IMG/VR virus record: IMGVR_UViG_2061766007_000813
Strand: one strand, 5' to 3'
Length of the DNA stretch: 64,000 nucleotides
Origin: an uncultured virus (IMG/VR IMGVR_UViG_2061766007_000813)
Lineage: Duplodnaviria > Heunggongvirae > Uroviricota > Caudoviricetes
The position numbers were made by a program, and so were the translations under genes. Shown in pieces: positions 15,412 through 45,900 of this stretch. The notes beneath the pieces are model-generated. The model was not told the origin of the DNA. It did not search any database and saw only the letters and a list, made by a program, of their open reading frames with translations. The number at the start of each line of letters is the position of its first letter. Position 1 is the stretch's first letter.

Positions 15412-15440
15412 TGTATTTTTCTCCTATGACATTGTTAGAA

Positions 15441-19605: not shown

Positions 19606-19651
19606 GTTTATTCTCCTTATATCCAATTAACAGATTTCGAAATTCGTTTTA

Positions 19652-20158: not shown

Positions 20159-20169
20159 ATCTTTTCTCC

Positions 20170-30136: not shown

Positions 30137-30142
30137 TCGCTA

Positions 30143-30168
30143 GTGGGGAGTGAACATTCACTCCCCAC
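30143..30168 (+). terminator. Hairpin after the AAA ATPase gene
   Basis: GTGGGGAGTGA/TCACTCCCCAC stem; weak T-tract. Confidence 0.6.
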
Positions 30169-30321
30169 GCATTGATTTTCTTGAAATTTTTTCACTCTGT
30201 CTTGAAAATTTTTCCGAAAACATGCCATATTAAAGCGTGCATGGATACAAAAGATGTGTGTTCGGTCGGTCGATGCACAGACTGACCGAAGAGTATAAAC
30301 AAGGAAAGAAAGGAAAAGACT

Positions 30322-30501
30322 ATGGCAAAATTTTATGATGTCAAGTTGAAGAAGTCGGTTGAACGCCCTGTCATCGCCAAGCAGGAATACGGCGAGGAAG
30401 GCAAGAAACGTTATGCCCTCAAAGGCAAGACCGAGGATGGTCGCTCCCTGACGGTGTTCTGCTCGAAGGAAGTGTACGACAAGACCAAGGTGAAAAAGTG
30501 A
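30322..30501 (+). CDS. Small basic 59-aa protein, CC1/DUF5679-like putative DNA-binding (below the ORF-track cutoff)
   Basis: MAKFYDVKLKKSVERPVIAKQEYGEEGKKRYALKGKTEDGRSLTVFCSKEVYDKTKVKK; has an AAGGA SD, a promoter-like CATATTAA at 30226 and its own terminator. Confidence 0.75.
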   Translation: MAKFYDVKLKKSVERPVIAKQEYGEEGKKRYALKGKTEDGRSLTVFCSKEVYDKTKVKK

Positions 30502-30533
30502 CAAGGATTCGGTTCTCATGACCGAATAGAGAG

Positions 30534-30572
30534 AGGCTCGTTGGAATCTATTTTTTTCAACGAGCCTTTTTT
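30534..30572 (+). terminator. Intrinsic terminator
   Basis: AGGCTCGTTG/CAACGAGCCT stem followed by a T-run. Confidence 0.8.
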
Positions 30573-30622
30573 ATCAGAATGATTTTTGAAANNNNNNNNN
30601 NATTTTTGAAAAAGGTGTCGGA

Positions 30623-31156
30623 ATGAGCAGACAATGCAATTCATGCAAGATGGTGGATGAAGCGAAGGAGCTGTTGAATGGTTTCACCTTCTCATTGGAG
30701 AAGGCGTGGCTGATGAAGCTCAATTCATTACAGGAAAAAGGCAAGGTGGTCGAATACATGAAGTATTCGACTATGGTGCTTGACCGTGCGTTGACCACAC
30801 GCAAGACGGACGAATACAAAATGTTCATCATCATCATGTGCAATTACATGGCTCAGGAAGACATGGACAGATTTGGTTCAAAAGCTGACGAGCTGATGGG
30901 CAATCTTTCAAAATCGTACAGCAAGATGTGCGAAAAGTACAGTGACAAGTCATGGGAGGATTTCAACTCCGAATTCAAAAGGTGGTTTGGAATCGACACG
31001 GATGAGATGAACGTATTGGGCGGGAAGCTCAGGAGGCTCAATGAGATATGGTCGAACTTCATGGTGAATGCCCATGTCACGGAATTTACGCGGAACAGGT
31101 TTGAGAGGTACGAGAATGATAGAGCCATTGATGAAATGGAGCGGGAGCAAGCGTAG
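30623..31156 (+). CDS. Hypothetical protein
   Basis: 177-aa ORF with an N-terminal CNSC. Confidence 0.7.
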   Translation: MSRQCNSCKMVDEAKELLNGFTFSLEKAWLMKLNSLQEKGKVVEYMKYSTMVLDRALTTRKTDEYKMFIIIMCNYMAQEDMDRFGSKADELMGNLSKSYSKMCEKYSDKSWEDFNSEFKRWFGIDTDEMNVLGGKLRRLNEIWSNFMVNAHVTEFTRNRFERYENDRAIDEMEREQA

Positions 31157-31958
31157 CCAGTCATCCGAGATATGCTCTCGGATAGATGGAAAGTACGATA
31201 CTTACTACGAACCGTTCTGCGGTGGAGGTTCCATCCTGTTTTCCCTGTTGTCGAATGACGACGGGAAATTCAGGAGGTTCGTGGCGAGCGATTTGAATGC
31301 TGACTTGATTGCGACTTACAATGCCGTCAAGGATAGACCGCAGGATGTCGTGGATGCGTACAGACGGCATTATGGCAACTTGGTGAATCTTTCCATCGAG
31401 GACAGAAAAAAATATTTTGAGGAAGTGAGAAAAAGATTGAACGAATCTCACGACCCGTGCGACTTCTTCTGGATTATGCGGACAACAACAAACGGGATGC
31501 CACGCTACAACAAGGACGGGGATTTCAACAATTCGTTCCATGTGACGCGGACTGGCATGGTTCCAGAATCCATCGAGAGGATTGTCATGCAGTACAGTCA
31601 TCTGATGAGCAGGCATGATGTCGAATTCAGATGTTGTCCATATACGGATATATGCCCAGAAGAAGATGACTTCGCTTATTTCGACCCGCCTTATGCTGGA
31701 ACGAAGGGGATGTACTTCGGTGGAATCGACAATGACGAGTTGTTTTCATATCTTGGAAATCTGAAATGCGACTGGATGATGTCGTTCGATGGAAAGGCTG
31801 GCGACGACGACATGACGGCTGATGTCCCGAAGGAGATATACGATTCCCACGAATATATTAAAAGCGGGAATTCGTCGTTCAGGCGAGTCATCGGAAAAGA
31901 CAAGAACTGCGTGGTGTACGAATCATTATATGTAAGGAAAAGACATGGCTTGGTTTGA
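31116..31958 (+). CDS. dam: DNA adenine methyltransferase (Dam/D12 class)
   Basis: PLMKWSGSK, YYEPFCGGGS, SDLNADLI and YFDPPY motifs. Confidence 0.9.
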   Translation: MIEPLMKWSGSKRSQSSEICSRIDGKYDTYYEPFCGGGSILFSLLSNDDGKFRRFVASDLNADLIATYNAVKDRPQDVVDAYRRHYGNLVNLSIEDRKKYFEEVRKRLNESHDPCDFFWIMRTTTNGMPRYNKDGDFNNSFHVTRTGMVPESIERIVMQYSHLMSRHDVEFRCCPYTDICPEEDDFAYFDPPYAGTKGMYFGGIDNDELFSYLGNLKCDWMMSFDGKAGDDDMTADVPKEIYDSHEYIKSGNSSFRRVIGKDKNCVVYESLYVRKRHGLV

Positions 31959-32418
31959 CAAACAAAAAAGATGGGCTTTGATAAAAAGGAAGAAACCGTA
32001 TACGCTTCAGCTTATCACAAATGCGACGAGATTTTCAGAGGATTTTCTGGCAATGATGAAAGACATCATTTCAAAAGAACTTGACAGGCTCGACAAGAAG
32101 ATGGATACAGTAGAATATGTGAAGCTTTCGACGTTCGATATTGACGAATGGATGGCAAAATATCGCAGTAGCCAGATAGAAGGGGAAATCCCAAGACGGC
32201 TCATGTTGAAATATCATGAAACAGAATTCATTGAAAAGATGCGGAATGAAATCCATCATCTTATGCTTAAGATGGATGACAAGAATTTTGAAATCACGCA
32301 AAGACCAAGATACAACGAAGTAAACTACATGCAGAAGACTTACGGGATTTCAAAAGAGAAATGGGACGACCTGCGGTATAGATTGTATAACATCTACATT
32401 ATTACAAATTGCGTTTGA
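31945..32418 (+). CDS. Hypothetical protein
   Basis: 157-aa ORF overlapping the end of dam. Confidence 0.7.
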   Translation: MAWFDKQKRWALIKRKKPYTLQLITNATRFSEDFLAMMKDIISKELDRLDKKMDTVEYVKLSTFDIDEWMAKYRSSQIEGEIPRRLMLKYHETEFIEKMRNEIHHLMLKMDDKNFEITQRPRYNEVNYMQKTYGISKEKWDDLRYRLYNIYIITNCV

Positions 32419-32427
32419 GGAAAAATT

Positions 32428-33069
32428 ATGATATCACTTGAACTTAACAAACGGATAAGAAAGATACAGGATGATTTCCTTATCATGAAGAATGAGAGGG
32501 AAAAGCAGTTGAAAAAATTGGATGCCCTCGAAAAGGAACGCGACGTGACTATTGAAAACATCGACACCCGCGTGGAGGCAATCAACTTCATCGAAGGCGT
32601 GGCTTCGCAGGAACGCATCGCCGTCAAGGAACGGGTTGAGAAGCTGATTACGGAGTGTCTCCATGAAGTGTATGACGATTCCTACTCCGTCGAATTCGAC
32701 TACGGTGTAAAGGGCAATAAGACATCTGTTGAAATTAGCATGGTCAGAAAATGCGCCGATGGCATGGTGGTGAAACGCCAGATAGATGGATTCGGTGGTG
32801 GCGTGGCAGACACGATTGCGTTGCCGTTGAAGCTGATTGTCCTCATGAACGACGACCAGTTCGACAAGGTTCTGGTGACGGACGAGCCAGGCAAGCATCT
32901 GGACACGTCGCGTGTCGCGAAGTTCGCGAAATTCATCCAGACGGTGAGCCACAAGCTCGGAGTCCAAATCATCATGTCGTCCCACTGGGAAGTGATGAAG
33001 GACGCATCCGACACGGTTCATCGCGTGACGCTGGACGACAGCGTGGCGAGAGTGACAAGAGAAAAGTAA
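32428..33069 (+). CDS. SbcC/Rad50-like ATPase, C-terminal half only
   Basis: Coiled coil, then signature-like FGGG, Walker B/D-loop VLVTDEPGKHLD and H-loop IIMSSH; no Walker A. Confidence 0.82.
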   Translation: MISLELNKRIRKIQDDFLIMKNEREKQLKKLDALEKERDVTIENIDTRVEAINFIEGVASQERIAVKERVEKLITECLHEVYDDSYSVEFDYGVKGNKTSVEISMVRKCADGMVVKRQIDGFGGGVADTIALPLKLIVLMNDDQFDKVLVTDEPGKHLDTSRVAKFAKFIQTVSHKLGVQIIMSSHWEVMKDASDTVHRVTLDDSVARVTREK

Positions 33070-33091
33070 AAGCAAGCAAGAAGGTGAATCA

Positions 33092-34315
33092 ATGGACGAA
33101 AAGATTTTCGAGAGTTTCAATGAAGCAATCAACTATCTTAATTCACATTTTAACGGGCATGGCACGGTCATTGGCGCGAACACGGGCAAAATACTGAAGA
33201 CGTGCAGGTGCTCGCATGGTGCTGACATGACAGTGTACGCCAAAGACGAGGAAAAGTACATCAACCACTCCAAGGACGAGGAAATGTACAAAGACTTGTA
33301 TGGAGGCGGAAAGACCAGAGTCCTGACCCCGAAGGATGAATTGAAGGGCATCCGTAACGGAGTGTTCCTCGCGGGTCCAGCGACACGTGGAGACAAGACA
33401 ATCGGCTGGCGCGAGGAATTCATCAACCAGTTCAGGATGCGCAACTGCGACTGTACCATCTTGAACCCAGAGGTGTCAGGATACGGGGAGTTCAGTGACG
33501 AGCAGTACAGGAGGCAGACCGAATGGGAAATCACGGCGATGCATCTCGCCACGAGAATCATCTTCTGGATTCCCCGCACGAAAGAGCATCCCGCGCTGAC
33601 GACGAACATTGAATTCGGGGAATGGTTCTCGAACAAGGCGACTTATGTCGGTTATCCGATTTGTTCCGAACACAACCGTTATATCGGCACGAAGTGCGAA
33701 CAGGCGGGGAAGACCCCGTACCACTGCATTACACGGCTTTGCGGAGCGGTCTATCAGGACATCGAAGGCGTTGCTGATAAGCCCCATGCGTATTTCACCA
33801 GCGACACCCACTTCGGCTCTGACCGCACGTTCGAACTGTCCAAACGCCCGTTCCTGAACGTGAGGGACATGGACTTGAAGATGGCTTCAAACTGGAACAA
33901 GACCGTCCGAGCCTGCGACACGGTGTACCATCTTGGCGACTTCGGCGACTGGGGGATGCTTCAGAACTTGAACTGCGCGAGGCTCGTGCTCGTCGAAGGC
34001 AACTACGAGAAGAAAGAAGGCGGAATCCCGACCGACAAGAGGATTGAAGTCCACGACAAGCCGATGAACGTCAAGATGCAGAACAGAATCTACACGCTCG
34101 TCCATGAGCCATACGCGGATTACGGGAGGAACGAATTCTACCTGTTCGGTCATATCCACCAGTTGCAGTATGTCAAGCTCAACGGAATCAACGTCGGGGT
34201 TGACTGCAACAACTTCACCCCCGTTGACGTGGCTACCATCGACTTCAGAAGGGATGCCATTAAGGGGCATTACGACAAGAACGTGTTTTGCAGGGAGGTC
34301 GGGAAGCACGAATGA
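33092..34315 (+). CDS. Nucleoside 2-deoxyribosyltransferase-like domain fused to a calcineurin-like metallophosphoesterase
   Basis: VFLAGP...W...ILNP...QTEWE...TTNIEFG, then SDTHFG, HLGDF, GNYE, HEP, GHIH and NVGVD. Confidence 0.82.
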   Translation: MDEKIFESFNEAINYLNSHFNGHGTVIGANTGKILKTCRCSHGADMTVYAKDEEKYINHSKDEEMYKDLYGGGKTRVLTPKDELKGIRNGVFLAGPATRGDKTIGWREEFINQFRMRNCDCTILNPEVSGYGEFSDEQYRRQTEWEITAMHLATRIIFWIPRTKEHPALTTNIEFGEWFSNKATYVGYPICSEHNRYIGTKCEQAGKTPYHCITRLCGAVYQDIEGVADKPHAYFTSDTHFGSDRTFELSKRPFLNVRDMDLKMASNWNKTVRACDTVYHLGDFGDWGMLQNLNCARLVLVEGNYEKKEGGIPTDKRIEVHDKPMNVKMQNRIYTLVHEPYADYGRNEFYLFGHIHQLQYVKLNGINVGVDCNNFTPVDVATIDFRRDAIKGHYDKNVFCREVGKHE

Positions 34316-34803
34316 AACGAATCCCGTCGTTGATAAGGCAGAGGAGGCGCAAGTGGACTCCCCGCTTCGACGAGGCGGTGACATATTGTCTTCATTGCAA
34401 GAAATTCTATGTCGGCATCGGGAAGACGACGATGACGACATGCAACAGGCTCCGTGGGAGAATCGGAGCCGTATGCTGTATCGAGAGGAACGGCTTGGAG
34501 ATGACTAAATTCAAGGCGGTCAGAAGACGGAAGAACAAGCATCGGCTCGTGTCGTATGACCGCAGAATCATCGAAGGGCTGAAGTTGAAGAGCGTGGACA
34601 AGAAGAGGACAAGGATTTTCCCTGTCCTGCATTCAGAGGACCCTATATGTTTTCTAAGAGATGACAACTATTGCGAATGCAAGAAATTGTTCATCTCGCC
34701 CTTCAGGAGGTTTTTGAAGGGCGAGCATTGCCCTTTGAATCCAGACGACAGGAATTGCGAATTTCATCTTGAAAGGTCAATGGAAAAATGGAACAAGATG
34801 TGA
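34312..34803 (+). CDS. Cys-scaffold paralog array member 1
   Basis: YCLHCKKF ... NCEFHLERSMEKWNK. Confidence 0.75.
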   Translation: MKRIPSLIRQRRRKWTPRFDEAVTYCLHCKKFYVGIGKTTMTTCNRLRGRIGAVCCIERNGLEMTKFKAVRRRKNKHRLVSYDRRIIEGLKLKSVDKKRTRIFPVLHSEDPICFLRDDNYCECKKLFISPFRRFLKGEHCPLNPDDRNCEFHLERSMEKWNKM

Positions 34804-35145
34804 GAAAATACTGCATCGATTGCCCGTATTGCCACGCCGTCCTTTACTTCAACATGGATTTGAGCATTGGCGACAGTTTTGACGCATGCATGGACGGTCT
34901 NNNNNNNNNNATTTGCCAACAACGACGTTCGTTATTTATGGATTGATTCGTCGGAGTTGGAAAAGGCTTTCGGAGAGCAATTGGACCACATGCTCGCGGT
35001 CAGGTACAGCGTGACCGAACTCCCGTCACAGATGAAGAAATATACTGATGAATATGTCGGGAGTGAATTGTTCAAGCATTATTGCGAAGACCAGAGATGC
35101 CCGTACTACGCGGAACTGCGACTTGAGGAGTGGAACAAGGAATGA
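34788..35145 (+). CDS. Cys-scaffold paralog array member 2 (N-gap inside)
   Basis: Manual translation gives MEQDVRKYCIDCPYC before the gap and RCPYYAELRLEEWNKE after it. Confidence 0.7.
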
Positions 35146-35496
35146 AACAAGAAGAGACCAGAAGCCCGTGCCTTGACTGTGAAATGCACACATTCATTTT
35201 CAAATACGAATATTGCGACAGCGACAGGAAATTCATCCTAGGCAGAATTCTTTCATTGTGCAGAAAAAATCCTACCGATTTGGGCTTTTTGAAAGAAATA
35301 ACGATAGGTTACGACGAATACCAGAATTGCAGGGAAAAACGGTATTTGGATTTTTCCTTCGACAGCAATGTTCCTTCCAAAACGCTTCAGGAATATATAA
35401 AAAGTGTCAATTTTCAGGGCTATATCCTTGACAAATCGGATAAACGGTGCATCTTATATGTGGAAAGGAATCTTGAAGAATGGAGCAACACGATGT
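35142..35496 (+). CDS. Cys-scaffold paralog array member 3
   Basis: PCLDCEMH ... RCILYVERNLEEWSN; ends at the N-gap. Confidence 0.7.
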
Positions 35497-35506
35497 NNNN
35501 NNNNNN

Positions 35507-35903
35507 TCCGTGCCTTGACTGTGAAATGCACACATTCATTTTCAAATACGAATATTGTGACAGCGACAGAAAATTCATCCTAGGCAGAATTCTTTCATTA
35601 TGCAGAAAACATGCCTGTTTTAGCTTTTTGAAAGAAATAATGATAGGTTACGACGAATACCAGAATTGCAAGGGAAAACGATATTTGGATTTTGCCTTCG
35701 ATAGCAATGTTCCTTCCAAAACGCTTCAGGAATATATGAAAAGTGTCAATTTTCAGGACTATATCCTTGACAAATCGGATAAACGGTGCATCTTATATGT
35801 GGAAAGAAATCTTGAAGAATGGAACAACAAGGAACCCGATAATGAAACTAAGCAAACTATGCGCCAAATGCCCGAAGAAGCTGTGGATGGTCACGAAGGA
35901 TGA
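35507..35903 (+). CDS. Cys-scaffold paralog array member 4 (near-duplicate of member 3)
   Basis: PCLDCEMH ... RCILYVERNLEEWNN; start hidden in the N-gap. Confidence 0.6.
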
Positions 35904-36222
35904 ACGCAATCCGAGAGTCGTGAGATGTCATTGCGAGACGGGGGATGAAGACGTGACTGAATCATTCCAGAACACAATTGTGACAAACGTCGTGATGAAC
36001 AACGGGGCGTTAAAGAAGTCCGACAAGAAGAACAGATTGAGGATATGGGAGTTCCAGAAGGATTCCCGCGAATTCTACTCGCTGATGTTCGACGGCACTG
36101 GGGACAGGCATTACGCCATGAGCGAGTCCGACTTTCAAAAACTGATAGCAACTCATGTCAAGAACTGCCCGTTCTACGCGGAGGCGTTGGTTGCCGACTT
36201 GAACGGCGGGGACGAGGAATGA
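35842..36222 (+). CDS. Cys-scaffold paralog array member 5
   Basis: MKLSKLCAKCPK ... NCPFYAEALVADLN. Confidence 0.72.
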   Translation: MKLSKLCAKCPKKLWMVTKDERNPRVVRCHCETGDEDVTESFQNTIVTNVVMNNGALKKSDKKNRLRIWEFQKDSREFYSLMFDGTGDRHYAMSESDFQKLIATHVKNCPFYAEALVADLNGGDEE

Positions 36223-36225
36223 CGC

Positions 36226-36861
36226 ATGTCTGGAATGTCCGAACTATGCGCGAACTGCCCCCACTTCTGGCTGAGGCTCGACCTGTGGTGGAATAATTCA
36301 AACCAAATCGGGAAGCCGTCTGGCGGGTTAATCCAGACGAGCTTCCTTTATGGTCTTTGCGAGGATGACAAGGAAATCAGCACGGTCGAAGCCAACCATA
36401 CGCCTTTTTTCCGTCATCAGAATGAAGGAAGGCGTGTGTATTTCAAAGCTGACGAAGTGTTCAAGTCGCCATGCTATCATAATGAGTGGTATGAATGGTA
36501 TTTCAAGCCAGAGGATACGATAAATTCATTGAAGGAACAAGTGACAAGGTACATGAACAGCAATCCATGTCCGCTAACAGGGGATGATGTCTTGAAGTTC
36601 AAATGCAAGTATCCGACAGAGAACAAGATTTTCGAGTGGAACGAGGAGAAGACGGATGAGCGAACAATTATCATTCATCAAGATATGCCAGCAGTGCCCA
36701 AGGAAGTGCATTCTGAGAGAGACGAATTATGGAATCGAATTCTACGCCTGCTTTTCAAGCGAAAATGCATTCAAGCATTTTATCGCCGATTTTCAGAGCA
36801 TATCAGGGCATTTGTTTGTGCTGTCAAGGACAAAGCCCGTATTTTTTTCTCCAGTGATTGA
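36226..36861 (+). CDS. Cys-scaffold paralog array member 6
   Basis: MSGMSELCANCPHF ... KCKYPTENKIFEWNE, then the frame continues over the next gene. Confidence 0.7.
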   Translation: MSGMSELCANCPHFWLRLDLWWNNSNQIGKPSGGLIQTSFLYGLCEDDKEISTVEANHTPFFRHQNEGRRVYFKADEVFKSPCYHNEWYEWYFKPEDTINSLKEQVTRYMNSNPCPLTGDDVLKFKCKYPTENKIFEWNEEKTDERTIIIHQDMPAVPKEVHSERDELWNRILRLLFKRKCIQAFYRRFSEHIRAFVCAVKDKARIFFSSD

Positions 36862-37039
36862 GTATTCGGATGTCCTATGTCATGACACAGAGTATGCTAA
36901 GAACTTTTGCGGATTGAAGAGAGAAAAGATTGAACTGACTGACAGTGAATTCCATGAAATAATGAAAGGGCATCTGAAAGGATGCGAATACTACGCCGAA
37001 ATAAAGATGACGGAATGGAACGAAGACAAAGAGAATTGA
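36656..37039 (+). CDS. Cys-scaffold paralog array member 7
   Basis: ICQQCPRK ... GCEYYAEIKMTEWNE; GAGGAG SD-like sequence upstream. Confidence 0.72.
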   Translation: MSEQLSFIKICQQCPRKCILRETNYGIEFYACFSSENAFKHFIADFQSISGHLFVLSRTKPVFFSPVIEYSDVLCHDTEYAKNFCGLKREKIELTDSEFHEIMKGHLKGCEYYAEIKMTEWNEDKEN

Positions 37040-37040
37040 C

Positions 37041-37198
37041 ATGGAAGAAAAAAAGACCAATGGCGGGATGGGGAAATACTGCCTGCAATGCCCGAAGTTC
37101 ACTTTGTTTTTTCATTGGAGTGAATGCGGAATCGAATCCCTGTTGGGGACGTTTTGTTCTGTAAGGGTGCGGGGAGCATGCAGGACAAAATGTGGATA
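37041..37198 (+). CDS. Cys-scaffold paralog array member 8 (5' part, truncated by an N-gap)
   Basis: Manual translation gives MEEKKTNGGMGKYCLQCPKF. Confidence 0.65.
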
Positions 37199-37209
37199 NN
37201 NNNNNNNNT

Positions 37210-37590
37210 GACCAGTGCCCTTACTTCAAGATGTACTACAGCTTCACCGAAGTTGGGGACCTGTACGCGATAGGGTACATGCATGGTGAATGCTGGAACG
37301 CCAAGGCGAATGGATACACGCCAGAGACGGCGGAAACAGCGTTCGTCAGGGTCGAGGTCGGCGGGATTGTGCAGAAGCCTATTGTGACTAACATATGGGA
37401 CACGTGGGATTCGGAAACGAAGCGGTACAACAATGACGACTCTTTCAGGTATAAGGCTGGACAAATACCTTCGGAGCTTTGGATGCAGACCCACACGTAC
37501 ACGTACTATAGGGATTGCGTGCTTGACAAAAGCAACAGGGAGTGCATCTTCTATGCCGAAAGAAATCTTGAGGAGTGGAACAAGGAGTAG
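37210..37590 (+). CDS. Cys-scaffold paralog array member 9 (start in an N-gap)
   Basis: DQCPYF ... ECIFYAERNLEEWNKE. Confidence 0.7.
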   Translation, partial: DQCPYFKMYYSFTEVGDLYAIGYMHGECWNAKANGYTPETAETAFVRVEVGGIVQKPIVTNIWDTWDSETKRYNNDDSFRYKAGQIPSELWMQTHTYTYYRDCVLDKSNRECIFYAERNLEEWNKE

Positions 37591-37592
37591 AA

Positions 37593-37949
37593 ATGAAAGG
37601 AATGCAAAAATACTGTGTGAACTGTCCGAAATTCGTTATGGACTGGAGAAGGAACGATGAAAGTAATAGGGAAGATGAATATTGGATAGGAAGACTGAAC
37701 GGTGGATGTCTTAATTGGGTTGGGCATTATGACGAATTAGATGGAGCTGTTCTTCCAGCCAATGATAAAATTTGCAAAAGAATGAAAAGAAAATGGAAAA
37801 TAGGCTTCCGATTTACCGCATCGAACGTTCCAGAGCCAATCAGGGAGAAATTCGAGGAATACGTCAGTAGCCGAGAATGTCCGATTTCAAGTGGCAATAA
37901 GAGATGCGAAATGTATGTGGAAAGACTTTTGGAGAAACTTTCAAAATGA
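37593..37949 (+). CDS. Cys-scaffold paralog array member 10
   Basis: MKGMQKYCVNCPKF ... RCEMYVERLLEKLSK. Confidence 0.75.
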   Translation: MKGMQKYCVNCPKFVMDWRRNDESNREDEYWIGRLNGGCLNWVGHYDELDGAVLPANDKICKRMKRKWKIGFRFTASNVPEPIREKFEEYVSSRECPISSGNKRCEMYVERLLEKLSK

Positions 37950-38386
37950 AGAAAATCGAAGCGTTGGAATATTGCAAGAAATGCCAGAATTTTCGTTTCA
38001 GGTTTGATTTCAAGAGCCATCACAAATCAAAGCATAATATTGGTGGATATACATGCTGTGATACTTGTGGTTTGTGCCTGATTTCTGATAAACTTGTAAG
38101 GGTGGAAGAAGGCAGGATAAAAATCCGAATCAACATACCTGATTCAGTAATAGATTCCTCTGACAATAAAGATTTCAAAACTTTTAAAACTTTTTTCAAA
38201 TCATTCATTGAAGAACACACACATAATAGCATGTCGTTTCGCATATCAAGTATACCAGAGCCATTATTATCATGCGTTGATAATTATTTAATGAAACAAG
38301 GGCGTTGCATGATAAATGAAGATGACAAAGAATGTTGTTTTCATATGGAAAGGATGCTTGAAAAATGGAACAAGGAGCAGAAATGA
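37946..38386 (+). CDS. Cys-scaffold paralog array member 11
   Basis: EYCKKCQNF ... ECCFHMERMLEKWNKE. Confidence 0.75.
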   Translation: MKKIEALEYCKKCQNFRFRFDFKSHHKSKHNIGGYTCCDTCGLCLISDKLVRVEEGRIKIRINIPDSVIDSSDNKDFKTFKTFFKSFIEEHTHNSMSFRISSIPEPLLSCVDNYLMKQGRCMINEDDKECCFHMERMLEKWNKEQK

Positions 38387-38778
38387 AAGGGATGCAAAAA
38401 TATTGCATAAACTGCCCGAAGTTCAAAATTGTATTTGACAGAAAGACGCTTGACGACTATGACCAGCCTGTGATTTCAGGTCGTATCTTCGGGATATGTT
38501 GGGACTATTATATGTTCACTTGTTTTCCACCAGGCACGGATGTGAAAGCGACTATTGCAAGCAAGGATTTCGGTCGGAAGATTTGCCAGAAGGATGATTT
38601 GAAATATGGGTATGATTGTGTTTACGACAATGGCAGAATTCCCGATTCATTGAAAGAGCAAGTTGAAAAATATGTTGCCACGCATGAATGTCCGTGGACG
38701 AAAGAATTGATGGAAAGAGAAGACGAACATTACTGCCCGTTTTGGATGGAAAGGAGTATTGAAGAATGGAACCAATGA
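38383..38778 (+). CDS. Cys-scaffold paralog array member 12
   Basis: MKGMQKYCINCPKF ... YCPFWMERSIEEWNQ. Confidence 0.75.
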   Translation: MKGMQKYCINCPKFKIVFDRKTLDDYDQPVISGRIFGICWDYYMFTCFPPGTDVKATIASKDFGRKICQKDDLKYGYDCVYDNGRIPDSLKEQVEKYVATHECPWTKELMEREDEHYCPFWMERSIEEWNQ

Positions 38779-39200
38779 ATGAAAATGAAAAAGTAAAAGG
38801 CATGGGCGAATTCTGCACGAAATGCCCTCGTTTCAAAATCGTGATGACCTACGACGACGTATATGACGACATGATAGCATTGCCGTCTTTTATTCCGTTG
38901 GTGATAAAGGGATATTGTGACAATGTTTCCTTTATTGAGCATTACAAGTACGAGCATTCCTATCAGGGAATGATTAATGCCCAGAAGGAGAAGCTCTTTC
39001 TTGACATCCCTCGCGAGAAGTTGAGGGAATTCATGAAAACTTCATTTTTCGAGGTAAAATACGACGATGTTCCGCAGTATCTTAAAAAGGACATACAGAA
39101 ATATGTTGATTCGCAAGTGTGCCCGTTGCGGAATGATGACAAGGAATGCGCGATGTACACCGAAAGAACGGTGAAGAAATTGAATGAGCCATCGGAATGA
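38775..39200 (+). CDS. Cys-scaffold paralog array member 13
   Basis: KGMGEFCTKCPRF ... ECAMYTERTVKKLN. Confidence 0.75.
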   Translation: MNENEKVKGMGEFCTKCPRFKIVMTYDDVYDDMIALPSFIPLVIKGYCDNVSFIEHYKYEHSYQGMINAQKEKLFLDIPREKLREFMKTSFFEVKYDDVPQYLKKDIQKYVDSQVCPLRNDDKECAMYTERTVKKLNEPSE

Positions 39201-39204
39201 AAAT

Positions 39205-39234
39205 TTGCATTTTTTGAAACTGGATGTATATTAA
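39205..39234 (+). promoter_or_regulatory. Sigma70-like promoter, TTGCAT-N16-TATATTAA
   Basis: Recurring motif upstream of the HD-domain gene. Confidence 0.65.
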
Positions 39235-39270
39235 TGGTATAATTAAGAAAGAGATTAGAAAAGGAGTCCT

Positions 39271-39873
39271 TTGAAAATGGAACTTAACGAATACATCCAG
39301 ATTGTCAAATCCGAAATCATCCCACAGGATGAGGAAATCGCCCGTGCGATTTTGGAAAAATATCTTACACGGACGAAGGCGCATGTCAAATCCGTGAATG
39401 AGTACGCGAAGAAGGCGTGCGAAGTCTTGAAGGATTATGACTGGTGTTGCCTGCTGAAAGCCAATGCGGTCATGCACGATTCCGACAAGCTGAACGACGG
39501 TGCGTTCATTGCGCATTATGCGCCTTATGTCGTCAAACGCTATGCCGATGGCGGTCTTCAAGACAAGTTCGTTGTGACAGAAAACTACAACAAGCAGTGG
39601 AACGACTACTACGTAGTCCAGCATTGCAAGAAGAACGGGCATCATCCAGAGGGATGGGACAAGACATATACCTACGGTGACAACTTTCCTCCTTACGACG
39701 CTACCTCCATGCCACCAGAGTACATGGCTGAGATGGTATGCGACTGGTGCGCAGTCGGAAAGGAGCAGGGGAACGACCCGATGGACTGGTTCAAAAAGGT
39801 GAACAAGGAAAGATTCATTTTCACGGAGGCGCAACAGGAATTCATCAAGAGGCTGATAGAAGCCATACGTTAG
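39271..39873 (+). CDS. HD-domain phosphohydrolase (DUF5662-like)
   Basis: AHVKSV...MHDSDK...HCKKNGHHPE...EMVCDW motifs. Confidence 0.78.
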   Translation: MKMELNEYIQIVKSEIIPQDEEIARAILEKYLTRTKAHVKSVNEYAKKACEVLKDYDWCCLLKANAVMHDSDKLNDGAFIAHYAPYVVKRYADGGLQDKFVVTENYNKQWNDYYVVQHCKKNGHHPEGWDKTYTYGDNFPPYDATSMPPEYMAEMVCDWCAVGKEQGNDPMDWFKKVNKERFIFTEAQQEFIKRLIEAIR

Positions 39874-39875
39874 GA

Positions 39876-40244
39876 ATGGACAGCTATTTCTGCAAAAACT
39901 GCGACAGGTTGAAATGCGTTCTCATCGAGAACACGTACTGCGGGAAGACGAAACCCCCGTACAGGAAGCTGTTTTTGCAATTGATATGCGACAGGAAGGT
40001 GCTGGCGATGGAGCCGATAGGGAATTCCGAGCCTGTTGACAGTGACTATGCCCTGCTTTGCAAACCGAAGTATGCGTGTTCCAATATCGTGACGGAGGAA
40101 TTCCTTTCCAAGCAGATGATGGATGATTATGAAGATGCGAAGGACAGGGCTTTCAGGAGAATCAATTCATGTGAGCTGAACAAGATGCCAGTCAACTGCG
40201 AATATCTGTTCGAGCAGGAATTCAGCAGTATGAACAGGGCTTGA
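39876..40244 (+). CDS. Cys-scaffold paralog array member 14 (divergent)
   Basis: MDSYFCKNCDRL ... NCEYLFEQEFSSMN. Confidence 0.6.
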   Translation: MDSYFCKNCDRLKCVLIENTYCGKTKPPYRKLFLQLICDRKVLAMEPIGNSEPVDSDYALLCKPKYACSNIVTEEFLSKQMMDDYEDAKDRAFRRINSCELNKMPVNCEYLFEQEFSSMNRA

Positions 40245-40253
40245 TTTATTACA

Positions 40254-40874
40254 ATGATTCATTTAAACAAAGGAGTGATGATGAAAAAGAAAGAAAAAAC
40301 TTACTTGTGCTGTGAATACGGGGAATTGTCTGATGACGGCAAAATGAAATGCATGTCTTTTGACAATAGAAACAAAGATTGCGAATGCTGGAAAAAAGGC
40401 ATGATGACCAACAAGATGTGTTCGGTCGAGCAAGCGAATCACGCATACAATGCCCGTGTTAGGAAGAATTTGAAGACATCGGAGATAGTTTCCGTCAAAT
40501 GCGATTCATTTGCAATCAGGGAAAATGGGATAAAGCTGTATTTCTACGACCCAAGGATTGATGCGACACAACGCGATACGGACATTCACATCGTATGGGA
40601 CAAATCCTCGTCGTTCCAATGTGACGGGTTCCTCGGCTCATCGGTGAAAGAAGGAAAGCTTACAACCGTCAGTCAGGCATGCGACTGGTTCATGCATTGC
40701 CTTGATGAATTGGAAATGGATTTCCAGCAGAAGATTAAAGCCATCAAGTCATTGAAGAAAAGGATGGCGAAGGGGATGCTTGAAAACCACGTCCAGATGA
40801 CGGACGAGGAAAAAGGAAAGATGATGAAAGTGTTTGAAACGGGAACAGGCGACATTCCGATTGATTATGATTGA
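40254..40874 (+). CDS. Cys-rich hypothetical protein, paralog of the next gene
   Basis: KTYLCCEYGE, DSFAIRENGIKL, QACDW and RMAKGMLE motifs. Confidence 0.72.
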   Translation: MIHLNKGVMMKKKEKTYLCCEYGELSDDGKMKCMSFDNRNKDCECWKKGMMTNKMCSVEQANHAYNARVRKNLKTSEIVSVKCDSFAIRENGIKLYFYDPRIDATQRDTDIHIVWDKSSSFQCDGFLGSSVKEGKLTTVSQACDWFMHCLDELEMDFQQKIKAIKSLKKRMAKGMLENHVQMTDEEKGKMMKVFETGTGDIPIDYD

Positions 40875-40915
40875 TTTTCATCTGACTCCATGCCATATTA
40901 ACATGGAGTCTTTTT
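40871..40915 (+). promoter_or_regulatory. Overlapping terminator hairpin and promoter (TTGATT-N17-CATATTAA, with the -10-like box in the loop)
   Basis: GACTCCATG-ccatattaa-CATGGAGTC-TTTTT. Confidence 0.65.
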
Positions 40916-40931
40916 ATGTTAAAGGAATACG

Positions 40932-41588
40932 ATGATGAACAAATATTTGAAAAAGACATATGATTGTTGTAAACAGGGGGAATGGTCTCCTGAGAAAAAT
41001 CATGTTATTTGCAAGCTCACGAAGCAGGAATGCCCTGGATTCTCATTCTTCCATTATGATTTCAGTGCTTCAAACTGTCTGTGCAGAGATAACAACGGAA
41101 ACAAGAAAAAGGCATTCAAGAAGTTCGATTTGTCAATTGAATCAAGACCGATGCCTGAATTAAAGACAAAACACGACGATGCCTTTGCCATACAAGAAGG
41201 GGGTGTCAAGATATTGTTTGACAAGAATGCCGAGCAGGATTCATGGTTTCCTGAACACAATAACAATACTGAGGTGATACTTGAGTTTAGAAACGATAAA
41301 TTAGGCATTTATGAACGGTTCGACAGCATGACGAAGGCATGCGACTGGTCGATTGTCCAGTTACAGCAGGCGAAAGCTGAAATGGAATCCATGCTTGTAA
41401 ACATCGACCGTGCGATTGACAGGTTGGCAAACGGAATGCTTGAAGGATATGTCAAGATGGATGGCAATGAAAAGGACAAACTCTATCCTTATTACATAGA
41501 GGAAGACAGGGTGGTTGTGAAATTAAGGCACGGGGAGAATCCCCATGTCAATAAAATAAAAGAGAAGAAAGATGATAAAGTCAGTTAG
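40932..41588 (+). CDS. Cys-rich hypothetical protein, paralog of the previous gene
   Basis: KTYDCCKQGE, DAFAIQEGGVKI, KACDW and RLANGMLE motifs. Confidence 0.72.
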   Translation: MMNKYLKKTYDCCKQGEWSPEKNHVICKLTKQECPGFSFFHYDFSASNCLCRDNNGNKKKAFKKFDLSIESRPMPELKTKHDDAFAIQEGGVKILFDKNAEQDSWFPEHNNNTEVILEFRNDKLGIYERFDSMTKACDWSIVQLQQAKAEMESMLVNIDRAIDRLANGMLEGYVKMDGNEKDKLYPYYIEEDRVVVKLRHGENPHVNKIKEKKDDKVS

Positions 41589-42804
41589 CATACAGAATTT
41601 CGAGGCTCACGAGGATACGACGATTGAATTCGGAGAAGGTATGAATTCGATTGTGGGATTGTCAAACAGCGGTAAGTCGGCTATCATCAGGGCTTTGATG
41701 GTAGTGGTTGACAATGAGTGGTCGAAGGAGATGGTTCGTACTGGATTTGAATTCTGCCGTGTCAAAGTTGAGACTGAACGCGGTTGGGTCGAAGCCGAAC
41801 GCGGTGAAAAGGTGAACCGCTGGCGTTGTCAGGAAGGGGATGGAGAAATCCAGTTCTATCAAAAAGTCGGTACGACCGTGCCAGAGCTTGCGACGAAGAT
41901 TCTTGGCATGGGCAAAAGGGAGCGTGGCGGTGGAATAGCAGAGCTTCCGAATTTCCAGACACAGTTGGAAAAACACTACATGCTGTCCGAAATCGGCGAG
42001 AAGAAAGCCACGTCCAACATGATTGCGGTCATGATGGACAATGCCATTGGTCTCGGAGGCATGGAGGATTTGATTAAGGATTTCTCAAGCGACCTCGTGA
42101 AGGACAAGAAATGGCTGACGGAGAAGCAGGAGGAAATAGTCGATTTGAAGACTGGAATCATCGACGAGAGCATTTTCAATCAGCATGAAAAAGATGTCGA
42201 GAATATTGGAAAGTTGAAAGATACCATTGAAACAATGGATTCCGATATTTCCGTGGCTGATAATTATCTTGATAAATATATTGATGCAAAATCAAGGAAA
42301 GAAATCGCGGACAAGAGGCTTGCTTCAATTCCAGAATGCAACGAAATGTACGGGCACATCGAGGATATAAAGACAATCAGGGATGGGCTTGCTTTGGTTG
42401 AGAAGACAAAGACTGCCAGCGAGAATCTGGAAAAGGCTGAGACAATCGCGAAGGTGAATGACAAGAAGATGACCGATGTGCTTGAAAAGTACCGTTCATT
42501 GCACGGGATGATTGGAATTTGCGAGAAAATCATCGACGGTGAGAAGAAACTCGATTTGGCAAAAGGCATCGCTGTCATCGACTCCAATAAAATGGATGAA
42601 GTTCGGAACGATGTGCTTAAAATCAATGAAAAAATAAATGATGCTGAAACCAAACTCGACAATGCGCGTGACCTGTGGAAACGCCAGAGCAATGCGACAA
42701 AGGAAGCCAAGAGCTATGCCAATGAACAGAGCGAGGCGGAGAAGGAATTCGAAGACCTGAAAAAAGAACTTGGTGTCTGTCCATTGTGCGGTAACAAGTT
42801 GTAG
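41572..42804 (+). CDS. SbcC/Rad50-like ATPase, N-terminal half ending at the zinc hook
   Basis: IKSVSIQNFEAH, Walker A GLSNSGKS, Q-loop-like FQTQ, long coiled coil and terminal CPLCG; no Walker B. Confidence 0.85.
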   Translation: MIKSVSIQNFEAHEDTTIEFGEGMNSIVGLSNSGKSAIIRALMVVVDNEWSKEMVRTGFEFCRVKVETERGWVEAERGEKVNRWRCQEGDGEIQFYQKVGTTVPELATKILGMGKRERGGGIAELPNFQTQLEKHYMLSEIGEKKATSNMIAVMMDNAIGLGGMEDLIKDFSSDLVKDKKWLTEKQEEIVDLKTGIIDESIFNQHEKDVENIGKLKDTIETMDSDISVADNYLDKYIDAKSRKEIADKRLASIPECNEMYGHIEDIKTIRDGLALVEKTKTASENLEKAETIAKVNDKKMTDVLEKYRSLHGMIGICEKIIDGEKKLDLAKGIAVIDSNKMDEVRNDVLKINEKINDAETKLDNARDLWKRQSNATKEAKSYANEQSEAEKEFEDLKKELGVCPLCGNKL

Positions 42805-42822
42805 TCATTTAATCAAATATAC

Positions 42823-42858
42823 AAAAGCCATTGTGAGAGAATCTCACAATGGCTTTTT
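42823..42858 (+). terminator. Intrinsic terminator (possibly bidirectional), directly followed by TATAATA
   Basis: AAAAGCCATTGTGAGA/TCTCACAATGGCTTTT; TATAAT at 42860-42865. Confidence 0.82.
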
Positions 42859-42903
42859 GTATAATAATGATGGTTGTTCATAAAAACAGTATCAGGATTT
42901 CAC

Positions 42904-45900
42904 ATGAGTAGTTTCTATCAGACAGACATTGAGATATTCTATATCGACGATTTCGGTGAGCATCATCCATTGCCATGCGCTTTTTATGCGTCCAAGCCAA
43001 AGTTCGGCTGGGTGCTTCCAGAAGGCGTGGAACAGAAGTCATTCAGGTTCGAGATGAGGACACGTTATCCTAAAAGCTATATAAGGAATGATGTGCCTGT
43101 TACGACATGCGCTTATTTCATCAGCAGGGCGGATGTTGGCAATACTCCGATACCTGAATACGAATGCGAATCATCCATAACGACAAGATTGAATGATGGT
43201 GTTCTGGAAACCATCAATACATGGCTTGGCGTATGCGAAGTCCGTCTTACAATTACCGATTTCAACGGAAACACCTATTGCACGCATGCCCATACAAATA
43301 GTGATATTTATGATTTCGAGGCGAACAGGCAATACAAGAAATGGGGTTCGCACAACAATGCATATTATTTCTGTTTTGACAATGACATCAGGGATGAAAG
43401 GAATCTGAACCAATTGAGCATATCCATCAGCAACATTGTAGGAAGTGTACCGAACGGATGGACATGCACGCTTCAGATTTCAGACCTGCCGTTGTTCGGA
43501 GATGACGATACGCTTGCAGGTGAGCTTCAATCCGTTGACGGAATGATGCCTTATGGCAGTGTCACGACATATGTGAATCTCCCTCCTGAAACAAGTTCAA
43601 GTTTATCTTCTGCGATACCGTCTGGCTCATTTGGAATCTATTATGGAAAAACATATTATTACAGGGCTAGGTCTGACAATGGGAATGAGCACACGGAATG
43701 GTGCAATGTCAGAGCCTTGCGTGTCATTAAGAATTCAGTGCCAGTCTGCCAGATACTCGGAGTGAGCTTGCCGTCTGAGCGTCCAAATGGAGAAGTCATT
43801 GTGACCATACGTGTTGACGATGACGACCATGACTATGTTAAGGCATGGCTTGCGTTTTCAATGAGAATCGACAGTCAGGAAGATGCCAATCAGATAGGGG
43901 GAGTGGCTGTCGATGGAAGAAACGAAGTCGATGCAAATCCGTATGTCGGAAACACACCGCCTCAGCCATTGACATCTTACAACAATCAAACGGCTGGAAA
44001 ATTCATCAGGGCGGTCACAAAGGAAAGCCTGATTCACATACCGACTGGAGAGAATATCGACGTGACATGGCAGACCATGACGGACAACACATATCCTTTG
44101 ACGGCTGGCGCAATCATGAGGAATGTATATCTCTACTTGTTCGCCTATGACGGAACGGATATGGGGCAGAGCAACTTCTATCCTCCTTCCAATGTGGCGC
44201 AGAATGGATTGACGATAAACAACGAAGCCGTTGAAGCACCTGCGTCTGGTGACTCATTGACTTCAATCGCATTCCAGACGCACGGGCAGATTGGATGGGA
44301 GATGAATTACGCGCTTCTTCCAGATACGATGCAACGTGCCTTTATAAAGCATACTATTTCCTCGTCGAGCAGTTCGACTATGAAGGCTGGTGAAGTCGGA
44401 TATGTCACAGGCGGTGCATCATGCAATGTGTCAATTGGAGGAAAAAATGTATACGGTACATACCATGATTGGTATGAATTGCACAAGATGGTTGAAAATG
44501 CGCGTGGGTTGTATTTTCTCCAGCGAGTGACACAGGATAATAATTTCTCCATATATAGATATGAAAAATACAATATATTGTATCCTTCGTATTCTGTATA
44601 TGATAATAAATTTAATGACCAGAATGTATTTCGCAAAGAAGGGGAACCGATTATTTTCGAGCCTAATTCAAACACTGGGGAAGAAAACAAGGATTCCAGA
44701 TATGCCACGCTTGACACGATACCCTGCCGTGGATTCGTGTCATTCTGTCCGAAATGCAACAAGCTCTATATCTTGAAAACCGTCATAAAGCTGGCTGATG
44801 GGACAATCTATGAAGACACGTATGATGAATCTGGAACAATTACCGAGACATCTCTTGTAAAGGCATTCGGAGCAAACGGGGAACGATTCGATGGGACTCC
44901 ATATGAACTCATGTTCAAATGCCAAGGATGCAATACGCTGTATCCGATGGACATGAGATACCAGACACACATGGCTACTGGCGTGTTTGGTTCCTACTTC
45001 AAGGACAGCTACGCCTACTGGCACGGATACAATTCCGACCTCCATCTTGAAGACAACGAGCTTCTCCAACAGCAATTGGAGTTGACAAGGAAACATGATT
45101 ATGAGACACTGGTGGAGGAATGGAAGGCACAATGGAAGATTGAGCACAATACAAACAGCAATCCCCCTGATGAAGACTGCCCTTATGTATGGGTGGATGT
45201 CACAAAGATTCAATATGCTCCTGGACAACAGGAAACTGCATCTTCCGACAATGCAAAGTTCAATACCGAGGAATTCGGTTTCATCCATGATGATGTGCTT
45301 CTCAATCTGAATCCGCGTCCTGAATTCGACGCATATATGAAAGTCATCCCGCCAGTCGCGAAAGGCTATCATGAATTAATCTACAACGACGGCGCGAAGC
45401 TCAATGCCAGCATTGAAAAAGATTACATGCATGACTTTGAGACAAAAGGCGAAGGTCAGGATGCCATTCCTGGTGACAAGAATCTTGTCAAGCTCGCCAA
45501 ACAGGGTCCTTGGTGGGTACAGAACAGGATGATGTACGAATTCTTTGAAGGAAAGAAATCCATCAAGTCCGTGAAGGAGGGGTATGTTGGAGCAAACAGT
45601 TATGGCGATGAGGAACAGGAGGAAGAGGAAGATGAGCAGGAAGAACATGAATACGGTAACAATGGAGAACAGATAACTCCACAACCGTTAAACGGCGCAA
45701 AGGAATATGTCGTGCGTGGTCTGGCAAAAGTCGGAAACGCCATGAATGAAGGGATGGCTGTCGTGCTCAAGAGGGATTTGGAGGAAAAAAGATGGTGGAC
45801 GATACTGGTCAACAGGATGTCGTGTTCAGGCAATGTTCAATTCCCGATGATAATCAAGAGGGACGTGAACGACAGATTTGAATATGTTGTCAATGATGAG

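Follow-up and report, generated by a model that had tools for sequence, protein, structure and literature searches.

A tandem array of small paralogous proteins with conserved cysteine ends and a diverged half-domain in the DNA of a probable very large gut phage

The stretch of DNA analysed here (the window) comprises 64,000 nucleotides (nt) from an uncultured virus of the class Caudoviricetes (IMG/VR record IMGVR_UViG_2061766007_000813). Between positions 34312 and 39200 its plus strand carries 13 head-to-tail copies of a small gene, encoding open reading frames (ORFs) of 118-163 amino acids (aa). We name the array ORFs M1-M12, the two copies of M3 being M3a and M3b, and a separate ORF at 39876-40244 is referred to as M13. 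M1-M12 form one orphan, undescribed family of small, soluble, single-domain proteins. The half of the domain that contains strand-3 and strand-4 has diverged beyond recognition among paralogues, whereas it is conserved within orthogroups. From the size, position and turnover of the genes we tentatively favour the reading that a metal-stapled scaffold has been diversified into a co-transcribed set of specific binders, serving host take-over or counter-defence.

A profile of 12 window ORFs (A2) was scored against 1.84 billion (1.84e9) representative proteins and matched 58 of them at E<=1e-3, 18 at E<=1e-10 and three at E<=1e-30. The matched proteins are 55-211 aa long with the exception of a repetitive protein of 2067 aa (P0033), which was matched over nine stretches and judged from its sequence to be a spurious, low-complexity repeat protein. 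A metagenome scan provided a syntenic relative, L001, free of runs of undetermined letters (N-runs); its ORFs R01-R22 include 21 clear family members and R22, the orthologue of M13. Alignment A3 combines 10 window ORFs, 16 ORFs of L001 and 37 of the 58 database matches in 63 rows. The 21 matches left out are P0033, seven fragments of 55-105 aa and 13 proteins near-identical to members from the window or L001.

Membership was assessed by a leave-one-out procedure, in which every ORF was compared with 300 shuffles of itself, using a profile stripped of that ORF and of all relatives at least 40% identical to it. Eleven of the 12 near-complete window ORFs score 15.8-89.4 bits, whereas their best shuffles reach 8.1-11.8. 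Of the fragments, the two halves of M2 and the N-terminal piece of M7 each exceed every one of the 300 shuffles, so that the similarity of the members is more than chance. When M4, M6, M13 and two relatives of theirs from the database, P0031 and P0056, were all removed, M4 and M6 still scored 21.3 and 13.8 bits, respectively, against 12.0 for the best of 1200 shuffles. The sequence-only reading of this DNA had counted about 14 paralogs. Thirteen gene copies stand by these scores, whereas the last ORF of that count, M13, does not: it scores 4.3 bits, a value equalled or exceeded by 16 of 300 shuffles, and has no BLASTP match to any paralogue. Its orthologue R22 scores 10.3 bits against 12.0 for the best shuffle. 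A profile search at E<=1 found no further members elsewhere in the window.

That reading did not recognise the family, and our searches bear this out. No Pfam family matches more than one of the 63 members, and in the per-protein tables none does so above its cut-off; the 15 weak families found each occur in a single member, among them Zn_ribbon_Top1 (E=0.024, below cut-off and not recurrent). PHROGs v4 matches at most three of the 63 (best E=0.0058), none of them through a structural family, and NCBIfam 20 and PADLOC-DB 2 match none of the 12 window ORFs. A profile search of PDB sequences gave nothing at E<=1. The nearest ESM Atlas clusters, at 0.86 and below the 0.9 lead level of the tool, are all named 'hypothetical protein', and no functional name occurs among those of the 58 relatives that were looked up. 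Searches for relatives returned none from GenBank phages, either by blastn with 34000-41000 or by tblastn with M11 and R12, and none from plasmids (tblastn with M9), from four scans of IMG/VR or from GTDB species genomes. Word-indexed protein searches are weak for this family, returning 6 and 9 matches, and the exhaustive search of representatives was more informative. Two apparent leads were discarded. The immunity-protein family CdiI_4 (contact-dependent inhibition, CDI) matches P0018 only, with 20.4 bits (cut-off 25.9) over 38 residues, and is absent from the close orthologue R12, so we regard the match as chance; the IMG/VR loci L002-L004, picked up by a DNA-pattern scan, contain no member by profile search and are likewise chance matches. 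The full-text literature yielded no description of the family, though it is not searchable by sequence and an unnamed mention is possible.

The ends of the proteins are clearly conserved. In alignment A3 each of the two cysteines of the N-terminal CxxC is present in 62 of the 63 sequences, and the motif is followed by a proline in 39 and a phenylalanine in 42. A third cysteine lies ~28 residues past the CxxC (62/63), and a last one, ~107 residues past it and just before the final helix, is invariant (63/63). An additional cysteine follows the long helix in 52 of 63 sequences, and the 'IPxxL' segment retains its proline in 46 and a tyrosine in 41. The motif of the final helix contains Glu (63/63), Arg (57/63), Trp (53/63) and Asn (53/63). 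Pooled pairwise identity is 0.32 at the N end, 0.30 in strand-2, 0.10 in the middle, 0.22 in the long helix and 0.42 at the C end, as anticipated by the earlier description of conserved cysteine ends around a diverged middle. The middle is 22-83 aa long (median 45). BLASTP with the middles alone detected 24 of 1953 pairs at E<=1e-3 (none with shuffled queries), on inspection mostly orthologues or recent duplicates. Overall, paralogues are ~17-25% identical. The isoelectric point (pI) varies from 4.5 to 10.1 with a median of 5.66 (42 of the 63 below 6.5, 16 above 8), the grand average of hydropathy (GRAVY) lies between -0.35 and -1.03, and no hydrophobic segment was seen on reading the sequences.

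AlphaFold2 was run on the family alignment for the paralogues M11 and M12, and both models predict a single compact domain of four strands and three helices. In M11 (predicted local distance difference test score (pLDDT) 82.2, predicted template modelling score (pTM) 0.76) the strands span residues 14-20, 30-39, 54-59 and 78-82, and the helices residues 88-100, 107-112 and 119-130. The M12 model (pLDDT 83.1, pTM 0.75) has strands at 23-29, 42-51, 66-71 and 94-98, helices at 104-116 and 131-140, and extra helices between the strands. The order of the core elements is identical in the two models, which were built from a shared alignment. Strand-1, strand-2, the long helix and the C-terminal helix make up the predicted conserved core. 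The middle of the sequence is predicted to supply strand-3, strand-4 and a helical stretch of variable length, all inside the domain, which argues against the 'swappable variable inserts' proposed earlier: it would be an integral part of the fold, not a detachable insert.

For neither model was a convincing match to a known structure found. Foldseek returned no match at E<=1e-3 in the PDB for M11 or M12 and none in BFVD. VIA-align against 48,161 chains gave best Z-scores of 2.8 for M11 and 3.6 for M12, the latter with the PX domain 1xte_A (root-mean-square deviation 4.4, 83 residues aligned). Among the 50 rows listed for M12 (Z 2.1-3.6), PX domains outnumber every other kind, a resemblance that we dismissed because Z<=3.6 falls within background according to the tool's own notes.

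In the M11 model the CxxC sits just before strand-1, the third cysteine at the end of strand-2 and the invariant cysteine at the start of the last helix. The four near-invariant cysteines would fit one metal site, most likely for Zn, that links the ends of the chain to the sheet, in keeping with the metal-clamped ends envisaged from the sequence. The arrangement does not correspond to the pair of knuckles of a zinc ribbon or rubredoxin, as there is a single conserved CxxC and no recurrent zinc-ribbon match in Pfam. It is very unlikely that the cysteines hold an Fe-S (iron-sulfur) cluster or act as redox thiols, making the array a set of redox or Fe-S sensors suited to an anaerobic gut host. 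Such a role would account for the near-invariance of four cysteines and the frequent fifth, for the many additional ones (3-11 cysteines per protein in total, with runs such as CCKCPC in R10-R12) and for the source of the DNA in metagenomes labelled as anaerobic gut; however, no Fe-S family of Pfam or NCBIfam is matched, and the CxxC precedes a strand in the M11 model, as in a zinc knuckle. To our knowledge, the spacing of CxxC, ~27 residues, Cys, ~78 residues and Cys is that of no known cluster motif.

Eleven window genes have clear orthologues in L001, with 50-96% amino-acid identity. The ratio of non-synonymous to synonymous substitution rates (dN/dS) is 0.10-0.59 in the 10 pairs with a computable dS and 0.10-0.25 for most of these; the values of 0.56-0.59, for M1 and M3a, come at very low dS. 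The middles are constrained like the ends. For M4, M5, M8, M11, M12 and M13, in which dS is not saturated, middle dN/dS is ~0.08-0.26, as illustrated by M5 (dN 0.050, dS 0.631) and M13 (dN 0.077, dS 0.641). The tree of the 63 sequences contains many deep orthogroups, each spanning different contigs. The middle is therefore not 'hypervariable', as it had been called: between orthologues it evolves under purifying selection, and the orthogroups are old. Nor does the array look like the target of a diversity-generating retroelement, although no search for a reverse transcriptase was made: within 34000-40500 the M3 copies are the sole long direct repeats, with no pair of template and variable repeats, and selection on the orthologous middles is purifying.

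The same data bear on whether the expansion has any adaptive function. Selfish or neutral duplicates might be tolerated by a very large genome, and the window does contain several other sets of tandem paralogues, while two array members have read-through tails. We disfavour this explanation as extremely improbable, because the frames are intact in two genomes, dN/dS is low for most pairs and the orthogroups have been retained across contigs.

Array content varies among related phages, as the sequence-only reading had suggested might be worth comparing. Ten L001 members (R09-R14, R17, R18, R20 and R21) have no orthologue in the window, and M9 has none in L001. R10-R12 are recent local tandem duplicates, and adjacent genes are somewhat more alike than in random orders (permutation p=0.007). 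At the left end, M1-M3 (34312-35496, corresponding to 916-2287 of L001) differ from their orthologues at a dS of 0.05-0.12, compared with 0.45-2.1 in the rest of the array and 0.53-1.24 in the flanking genes (0.53 in the upstream flank), which suggests that this end was recently exchanged between the two lineages. Among the public contigs mapped to the region, one from run X3 joins 34809 to 35138 and thereby removes M2, a weak observation with a depth of 3.9 and 33 letters on the shorter side. Two loose ends in X3, at 38392 and 38761, when read by eye carry the N terminus of an R17-like member and the family C-terminal motif, which suggests that M11 is replaced there by another cassette. Where contigs of X3, X4 and X20 leave parts of the array uncovered, this does not indicate absence. 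Taken at the level of sequence, whole cassettes appear to be gained, lost or replaced between related phages.

The tandem arrangement is probably the rule elsewhere too, because matches on other contigs often start with 'MEQ' or 'MEP', which are the preceding ...EEWN codons read in the next frame. Some short contigs also carry more than one cluster; one of 4,707 bp has four. A repeat of 77 nt links the M8/M9 and M10/M11 junctions with 82% identity. Since its copies differ at synonymous sites, the conserved junction is not a recent gene-conversion tract, and the conserved ends would instead be kept by selection at the protein level.

The array is tightly packed. Of the 11 readable junctions from the upstream gene to M12, six are 4-nt ATGA or GTGA overlaps and three are spacers of 1-3 nt; at the other two, read-through tails give rise to long overlaps. 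These tails belong to M5 and M3b, which have no stop codon where the other members end and run 206 and 62 nt, respectively, into the next member in another frame; the same read-through is seen in L001 (R05, 224 aa; R03, 160 aa). Genes are preceded by AAGGAG-type ribosome-binding sites, and the purine-rich codons of the C-terminal motif double as the Shine-Dalgarno sequence of the following gene.

This coupling, which would favour equal dosage, is relevant to a further explanation, in which the members are interchangeable adaptors: the Cys4 core and the Glu-Arg/Trp-Asn helix would dock on a common phage or host machine while the diverged half recruits substrates. The most conserved residues do form one contiguous C-terminal helix motif on an otherwise diverged surface. 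Still, we consider adaptors rather improbable, as no candidate common partner was identified, folding constraints explain conserved residues near the metal site as easily, and the codons of the motif are also under the non-protein constraint of supplying a Shine-Dalgarno sequence.

The window is a scaffold with 13 N-runs of 10-12 N, three of which fall inside the array. In a contig of run X1, 69 letters take the place of the N-run at 34901-34910. Contigs of X1, X3 and X4 span the one at 37199-37208 without fixing how many letters it represents; judging by how long the intact orthologues R07 and R08 are, we estimate that it hides ~230 nt. Because these runs stand for longer sequence, the frames of M2, M7 and M8 look broken, and the genes are probably intact. 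The run at 35497-35506, between M3a and M3b, is bridged by none of the listed contigs, and the sample also contains a minor strain; the gene may truly be duplicated, or the scaffolder may have put together variants from two strains.

Relatives of array members occur on contigs of 655,914 and 293,027 bp, so the source is probably a very large phage. The window itself encodes phage-type proteins (PHROG ATPases, an exonuclease, a phosphoesterase, a dUTPase and two DNA methylases). Its DNA is found in metagenomes labelled as cattle gut, with runs X1, X3 and X4, from three studies, covering the region; runs with shares below 0.2 (X11-X20) were not used for habitat. The nearest relatives of a neighbouring SbcC-like protein among GenBank phages are from Bacillus phages (26% identity), which together with the AAGGAG-type sites gives a weak hint of a Firmicutes host.

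The array is probably the distal part of one transcription unit, judging from its sequence signals. Promoter-like sites come after a hairpin at 30143-30168 that resembles a terminator, and the unit begins with a Dam-type methylase, an ATPase corresponding to the C-terminal half of SbcC and a fusion of a deoxyribosyltransferase with a phosphoesterase. Within the stop-on-start run of genes there is no strong match to a promoter or terminator. The best promoter match of the 15.5 kb scanned lies just beyond M12 (Table 1), also follows the last array gene in L001 and would close the predicted unit, which is flanked by sigma-70-like promoter matches. Rfam found nothing in 30000-43000, and the window contains no tRNAs.

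The genomic position also figures in what we regard as the main rival to our favoured reading, namely that the members are nucleic-acid-binding proteins, either regulators of transcription or replication or structural DNA-binders, with the Cys4 element and the conserved helix as the core that binds and the diverged half as the specificity determinant. The array lies amid genes of DNA metabolism (the Dam methylase, the halves of the SbcC-like ATPase and the phosphoesterase), M1 is strongly basic and 16 of the 63 members have a pI above 8, and an invariant Glu-Arg is present in the helix. The same function was proposed for a zinc-ribbon expansion of ~35 copies in phage G, in the section of PMC7824862 that deals with it. 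Most members of the present family are acidic, however, and no DNA-binding or zinc-ribbon Pfam match recurs among the 63. On balance we judge this explanation unlikely.

The phage G expansion is the closest analogue that we found. Section 3.4.3 of Iyer et al. 2021 (PMC7824862) describes it as a lineage-specific expansion of zinc ribbons, numbering ~35 copies, in Bacillus megaphage G. In the phage genome (JN638751) we located five small CPIC...CxxxC...KENDRYL proteins in the first 50 kb and built a profile from them (A6), which matches the genome at 36 places (E<=1e-3). About 29 of these form a head-to-tail array at 352914-370998, with open frames 183-230 aa long and spaced ~600 nt apart, and five shorter copies lie at 26-33 kb. 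Similar to the array described here, the expansion belongs to a very large phage and consists of many diverged head-to-tail copies, with a domain of ~100 aa in phage G. In its proteins, too, a variable middle lies between an N-terminal CxxC and a conserved C-terminal helix motif, and they belong to no Pfam family. However, the cysteines are arranged differently: phage G has two pairs within ~25 residues (CPxC, ~16-22 residues, CxxxC), whereas the window family has one CxxC and single cysteines ~28 and ~107 residues later. The two also appear unrelated in sequence. Profile A3 has no match in phage G at E<=1, where the same tool finds 36 with A6 as a positive control; hhalign of A3 against A6 gives a probability of 0.3%; and A6 reaches 6.9 bits at most, whether scored on the window, on L001 or on the 63 members. 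The phenomenon is thus known, and the family of the window, its cysteine arrangement and apparently its fold are new.

Other tandem families offer more distant comparisons. Phage T4 is reported to escape the toxIN defence by tandem amplification, through recombination, of tifA, a small gene encoding a protein inhibitor (Srikant, Guegler, Laub; 10.1101/2022.04.14.488369). This too is a multiplication of a small accessory phage gene, although the copies of tifA arose recently in the laboratory and are identical, whereas those of the window are ancient, ~17-25% identical and each conserved as a separate orthogroup. Strings of non-identical, esaG-type immunity genes next to type VII secretion toxins (10.1101/2022.01.07.475358) are likewise diverged small tandem paralogues that recombine between copies and presumably have different protein partners. 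They differ in being bacterial chromosomal immunity genes with a known toxin partner, whereas the array belongs to a phage genome and, with no Pfam match, shows no sequence relation to them. In the tandem lpl cluster of S. aureus a shared conserved segment is the likely site of recombination by which the cluster is reshuffled, according to the passages of Tsuru and Kobayashi 2008 (PMC2568036) on that cluster. There the central segment is conserved and the ends vary; in the window array the ends are conserved and the middle varies, and recombination at the ends would therefore move whole cassettes.

Large DNA viruses of eukaryotes offer a similar pattern. The multigene families of African swine fever virus and the 'accordions' of poxviruses consist of tandem, diverged, small paralogues whose number varies with strain and is linked to host range. 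The parallel is one of analogy only, because the viruses and the proteins are unrelated.

How might a repertoire of binders work? In the scheme that we favour, the four cysteines would hold one metal ion and staple the ends of the chain to the sheet. The diverged face of each orthogroup would recognise a target of its own, a molecule of the host (or of the phage), and the repertoire would be used early in infection to take over the host or to neutralise its defences. The invariant Glu-Arg and the Trp-Asn of the last helix would belong to the structural core, or would allow all members to dock on one partner. Small accessory genes whose presence varies between related phages are typical of counter-defence and take-over genes, and the wide range of pI (4.5-10.1) and the identity of only 0.10 in the middle point to different surfaces. 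The amplification of tifA in T4 is a precedent for the tandem multiplication of a small inhibitor gene by a phage.

Several observations weigh against this scheme. No member resembles any known anti-defence or take-over protein. Old orthogroups with mostly clear purifying selection are not the signature of an ongoing arms race, and the invariant Glu-Arg may reflect catalysis or the binding of nucleic acids. For the zinc ribbons of phage G, Iyer et al. (PMC7824862) suggested transcription factors or structural DNA-binding proteins. The metal site is deduced solely from conservation and position in the secondary structure, and the M11 and M12 models, resting on one common alignment, are not independent. 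Finally, the evidence of expression comes from one metatranscriptome library, as three short contigs on M4, M11 and the DUF5662 gene, for which carry-over of DNA is possible.

A more far-reaching version of the binder scheme would have a new fold used by very large gut phages as an evolvable, metal-stapled scaffold, the phage equivalent of the multigene families just mentioned for large eukaryotic DNA viruses, with the Cys4 and the Glu-Arg/Trp-Asn helix docking all paralogues on a shared partner, the strand-3/strand-4 half selecting host targets, and cassettes gained, lost or exchanged among strains to follow host defences. We regard this version as doubtful.

The features of the array and of the DNA immediately downstream are collected in Table 1.

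Table 1. Genes and a promoter-like site in the array region of the window (bits, leave-one-out profile scores; R numbers, ORFs of the relative L001; identities refer to the window ORF)
Feature	Coordinates	Strand	Description
M1	34312..34803	+	163 aa, pI 10.1, net charge +23 (unusually basic); 50.4 bits in the leave-one-out test, best shuffle 8.3; R01 86.5% identical
M2	34800..35145	+	GTG start overlaps M1 stop; cut by N-run 34901-34910; N fragment 11.3 bits and C fragment 43.7 bits, both above all 300 shuffles; intact orthologue R02 of 138 aa
M3a	35142..35496	+	3' end enters N-run 35497-35506; 62.7 bits, best shuffle 8.7; DNA 96.7% identical to R03
M3b	35507..35903	+	Second M3 copy, DNA 94.1% identical to M3a; 60.1 bits; family part to 35834, tail overlaps M4 by 62 nt
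M4	35842..36222	+	Divergent member without third and fourth conserved Cys; 21.3-22.7 bits, best shuffle 8.1-12.0; R04 90% identical
M5	36226..36861	+	55.8 bits; family domain to 36651, ORF continues 206 nt into M6 in another frame; orthologue R05
M6	36656..37039	+	Divergent member; 13.8-15.8 bits, best shuffle 9.9-12.0; R06 53% identical
M7	37041..37198	+	N-terminal 52 aa, rest hidden by N-run 37199-37208; 29.2 bits, best shuffle 7.5; 92% identical to intact R07 of 124 aa
M8	37209..37590	+	Start, including first Cys of CxxC, hidden by N-run; 69.1 bits; R08 68.5% identical
M9	37593..37949	+	118 aa; 76.1 bits; no L001 orthologue, best L001 match 25% identical
M10	37946..38386	+	146 aa; 75.3 bits; R15 51% identical; ATGA overlaps on both sides
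M11	38383..38778	+	131 aa; 89.4 bits; R16 75% identical; first protein modelled
M12	38775..39200	+	Start at 38775 or 38766; last clear member; 77.2 bits; R19 51% identical; second protein modelled
Sigma-70-like promoter match	39214..39243	+	TTGAAA, 18-nt spacer, TG, TATAAT; 11/12; best of 15.5 kb scanned; consensus match only
DUF5662 protein	39271..39873	+	200 aa; Pfam PF18907 E=7.6e-16, phrog_20637 E=1e-6; L001 orthologue 79% identical; not a family member, separates M12 from M13
M13	39876..40244	+	122 aa; N-terminal CxxC and C-terminal Cys-x5-Glu; membership not supported (4.3 bits)

The gene for the DUF5662 protein is separated from M12 by a spacer of 70 nt. Upstream, M1 is preceded with a 4-nt overlap by a gene at 33092-34315 (+) whose product of 407 aa fuses a nucleoside 2-deoxyribosyltransferase-like domain to a calcineurin-like phosphoesterase. 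Two genes, one on either side of the array, apparently encode the halves of a split SbcC/Rad50-like ATPase, with their order reversed: the upstream gene (32428-33069, +; 213 aa, a full-length match to phrog_15167) corresponds to the C-terminal half, and the downstream gene (41572-42804, +; 410 aa, phrog_16465 'exonuclease') to the N-terminal half, which ends exactly at a CPLCG motif that resembles a zinc hook. A pair of small paralogues with Cys-rich N termini and no Pfam or PHROG match is found at 40254-40874 and 40932-41588 (+; 206 and 218 aa). Each is 23-26% identical to the L001 orthologue of the other, and window and L001 orthologues share 46-60%, indicating fast divergence. A single ORF of 3463 aa follows at 42874-53265 (+), neither half of which has a PHROG match at E<=1e-5; its L001 orthologue starts at 12979.

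On the minus strand, six tandem paralogues of family-2 glycosyltransferases (11394-17959; ~330 aa, starting MT(E/K)LT(I/V)C) end with one of 511 aa that is fused to a methyltransferase domain. Three neighbouring ORFs at 18019-18681, 19315-19626 and 19652-20182 (-) have the N-terminal sequence 'M(D/N)(Q)N(V/I)KIAKEL' in common and make up a further local set of paralogues; the one scanned has no family match. Three very large neighbours at 1-10043 (-; at least 1361, 1189 and 791 aa) contain BspA-type leucine-rich repeats, match phrog_35892 and phrog_18805, and may be host-recognition or surface proteins.

The presence of these large BspA-type proteins, and of a weak minor-tail match, in the same window is one argument for array products that are packaged in the virion, or ejected as internal proteins and delivered with the DNA; that the proteins are small, numerous, variable and accessory is another. 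We nonetheless hold a virion role to be highly improbable. The array is on the opposite strand, 24 kb from the BspA-type and minor-tail genes, within a run of nucleotide and DNA-metabolism genes that has sigma-70-like promoter matches, and no structural PHROG family is matched.

Very large phages spend much of their extra DNA on lineage-specific expansions whose roles are almost entirely obscure, and the array is among the larger of these, with 13 to 21 clear copies over ~5-8.5 kb. If its members are specific inhibitors or adaptors, they would constitute a ready-made collection of small binders directed at functions of a gut bacterium that is uncultured and, together with the unrelated phage G array, would indicate that megaphages have repeatedly evolved repertoires of metal-stapled mini-proteins. 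If they are regulators, the array would imply an unusually complex transcriptional programming in these phages.

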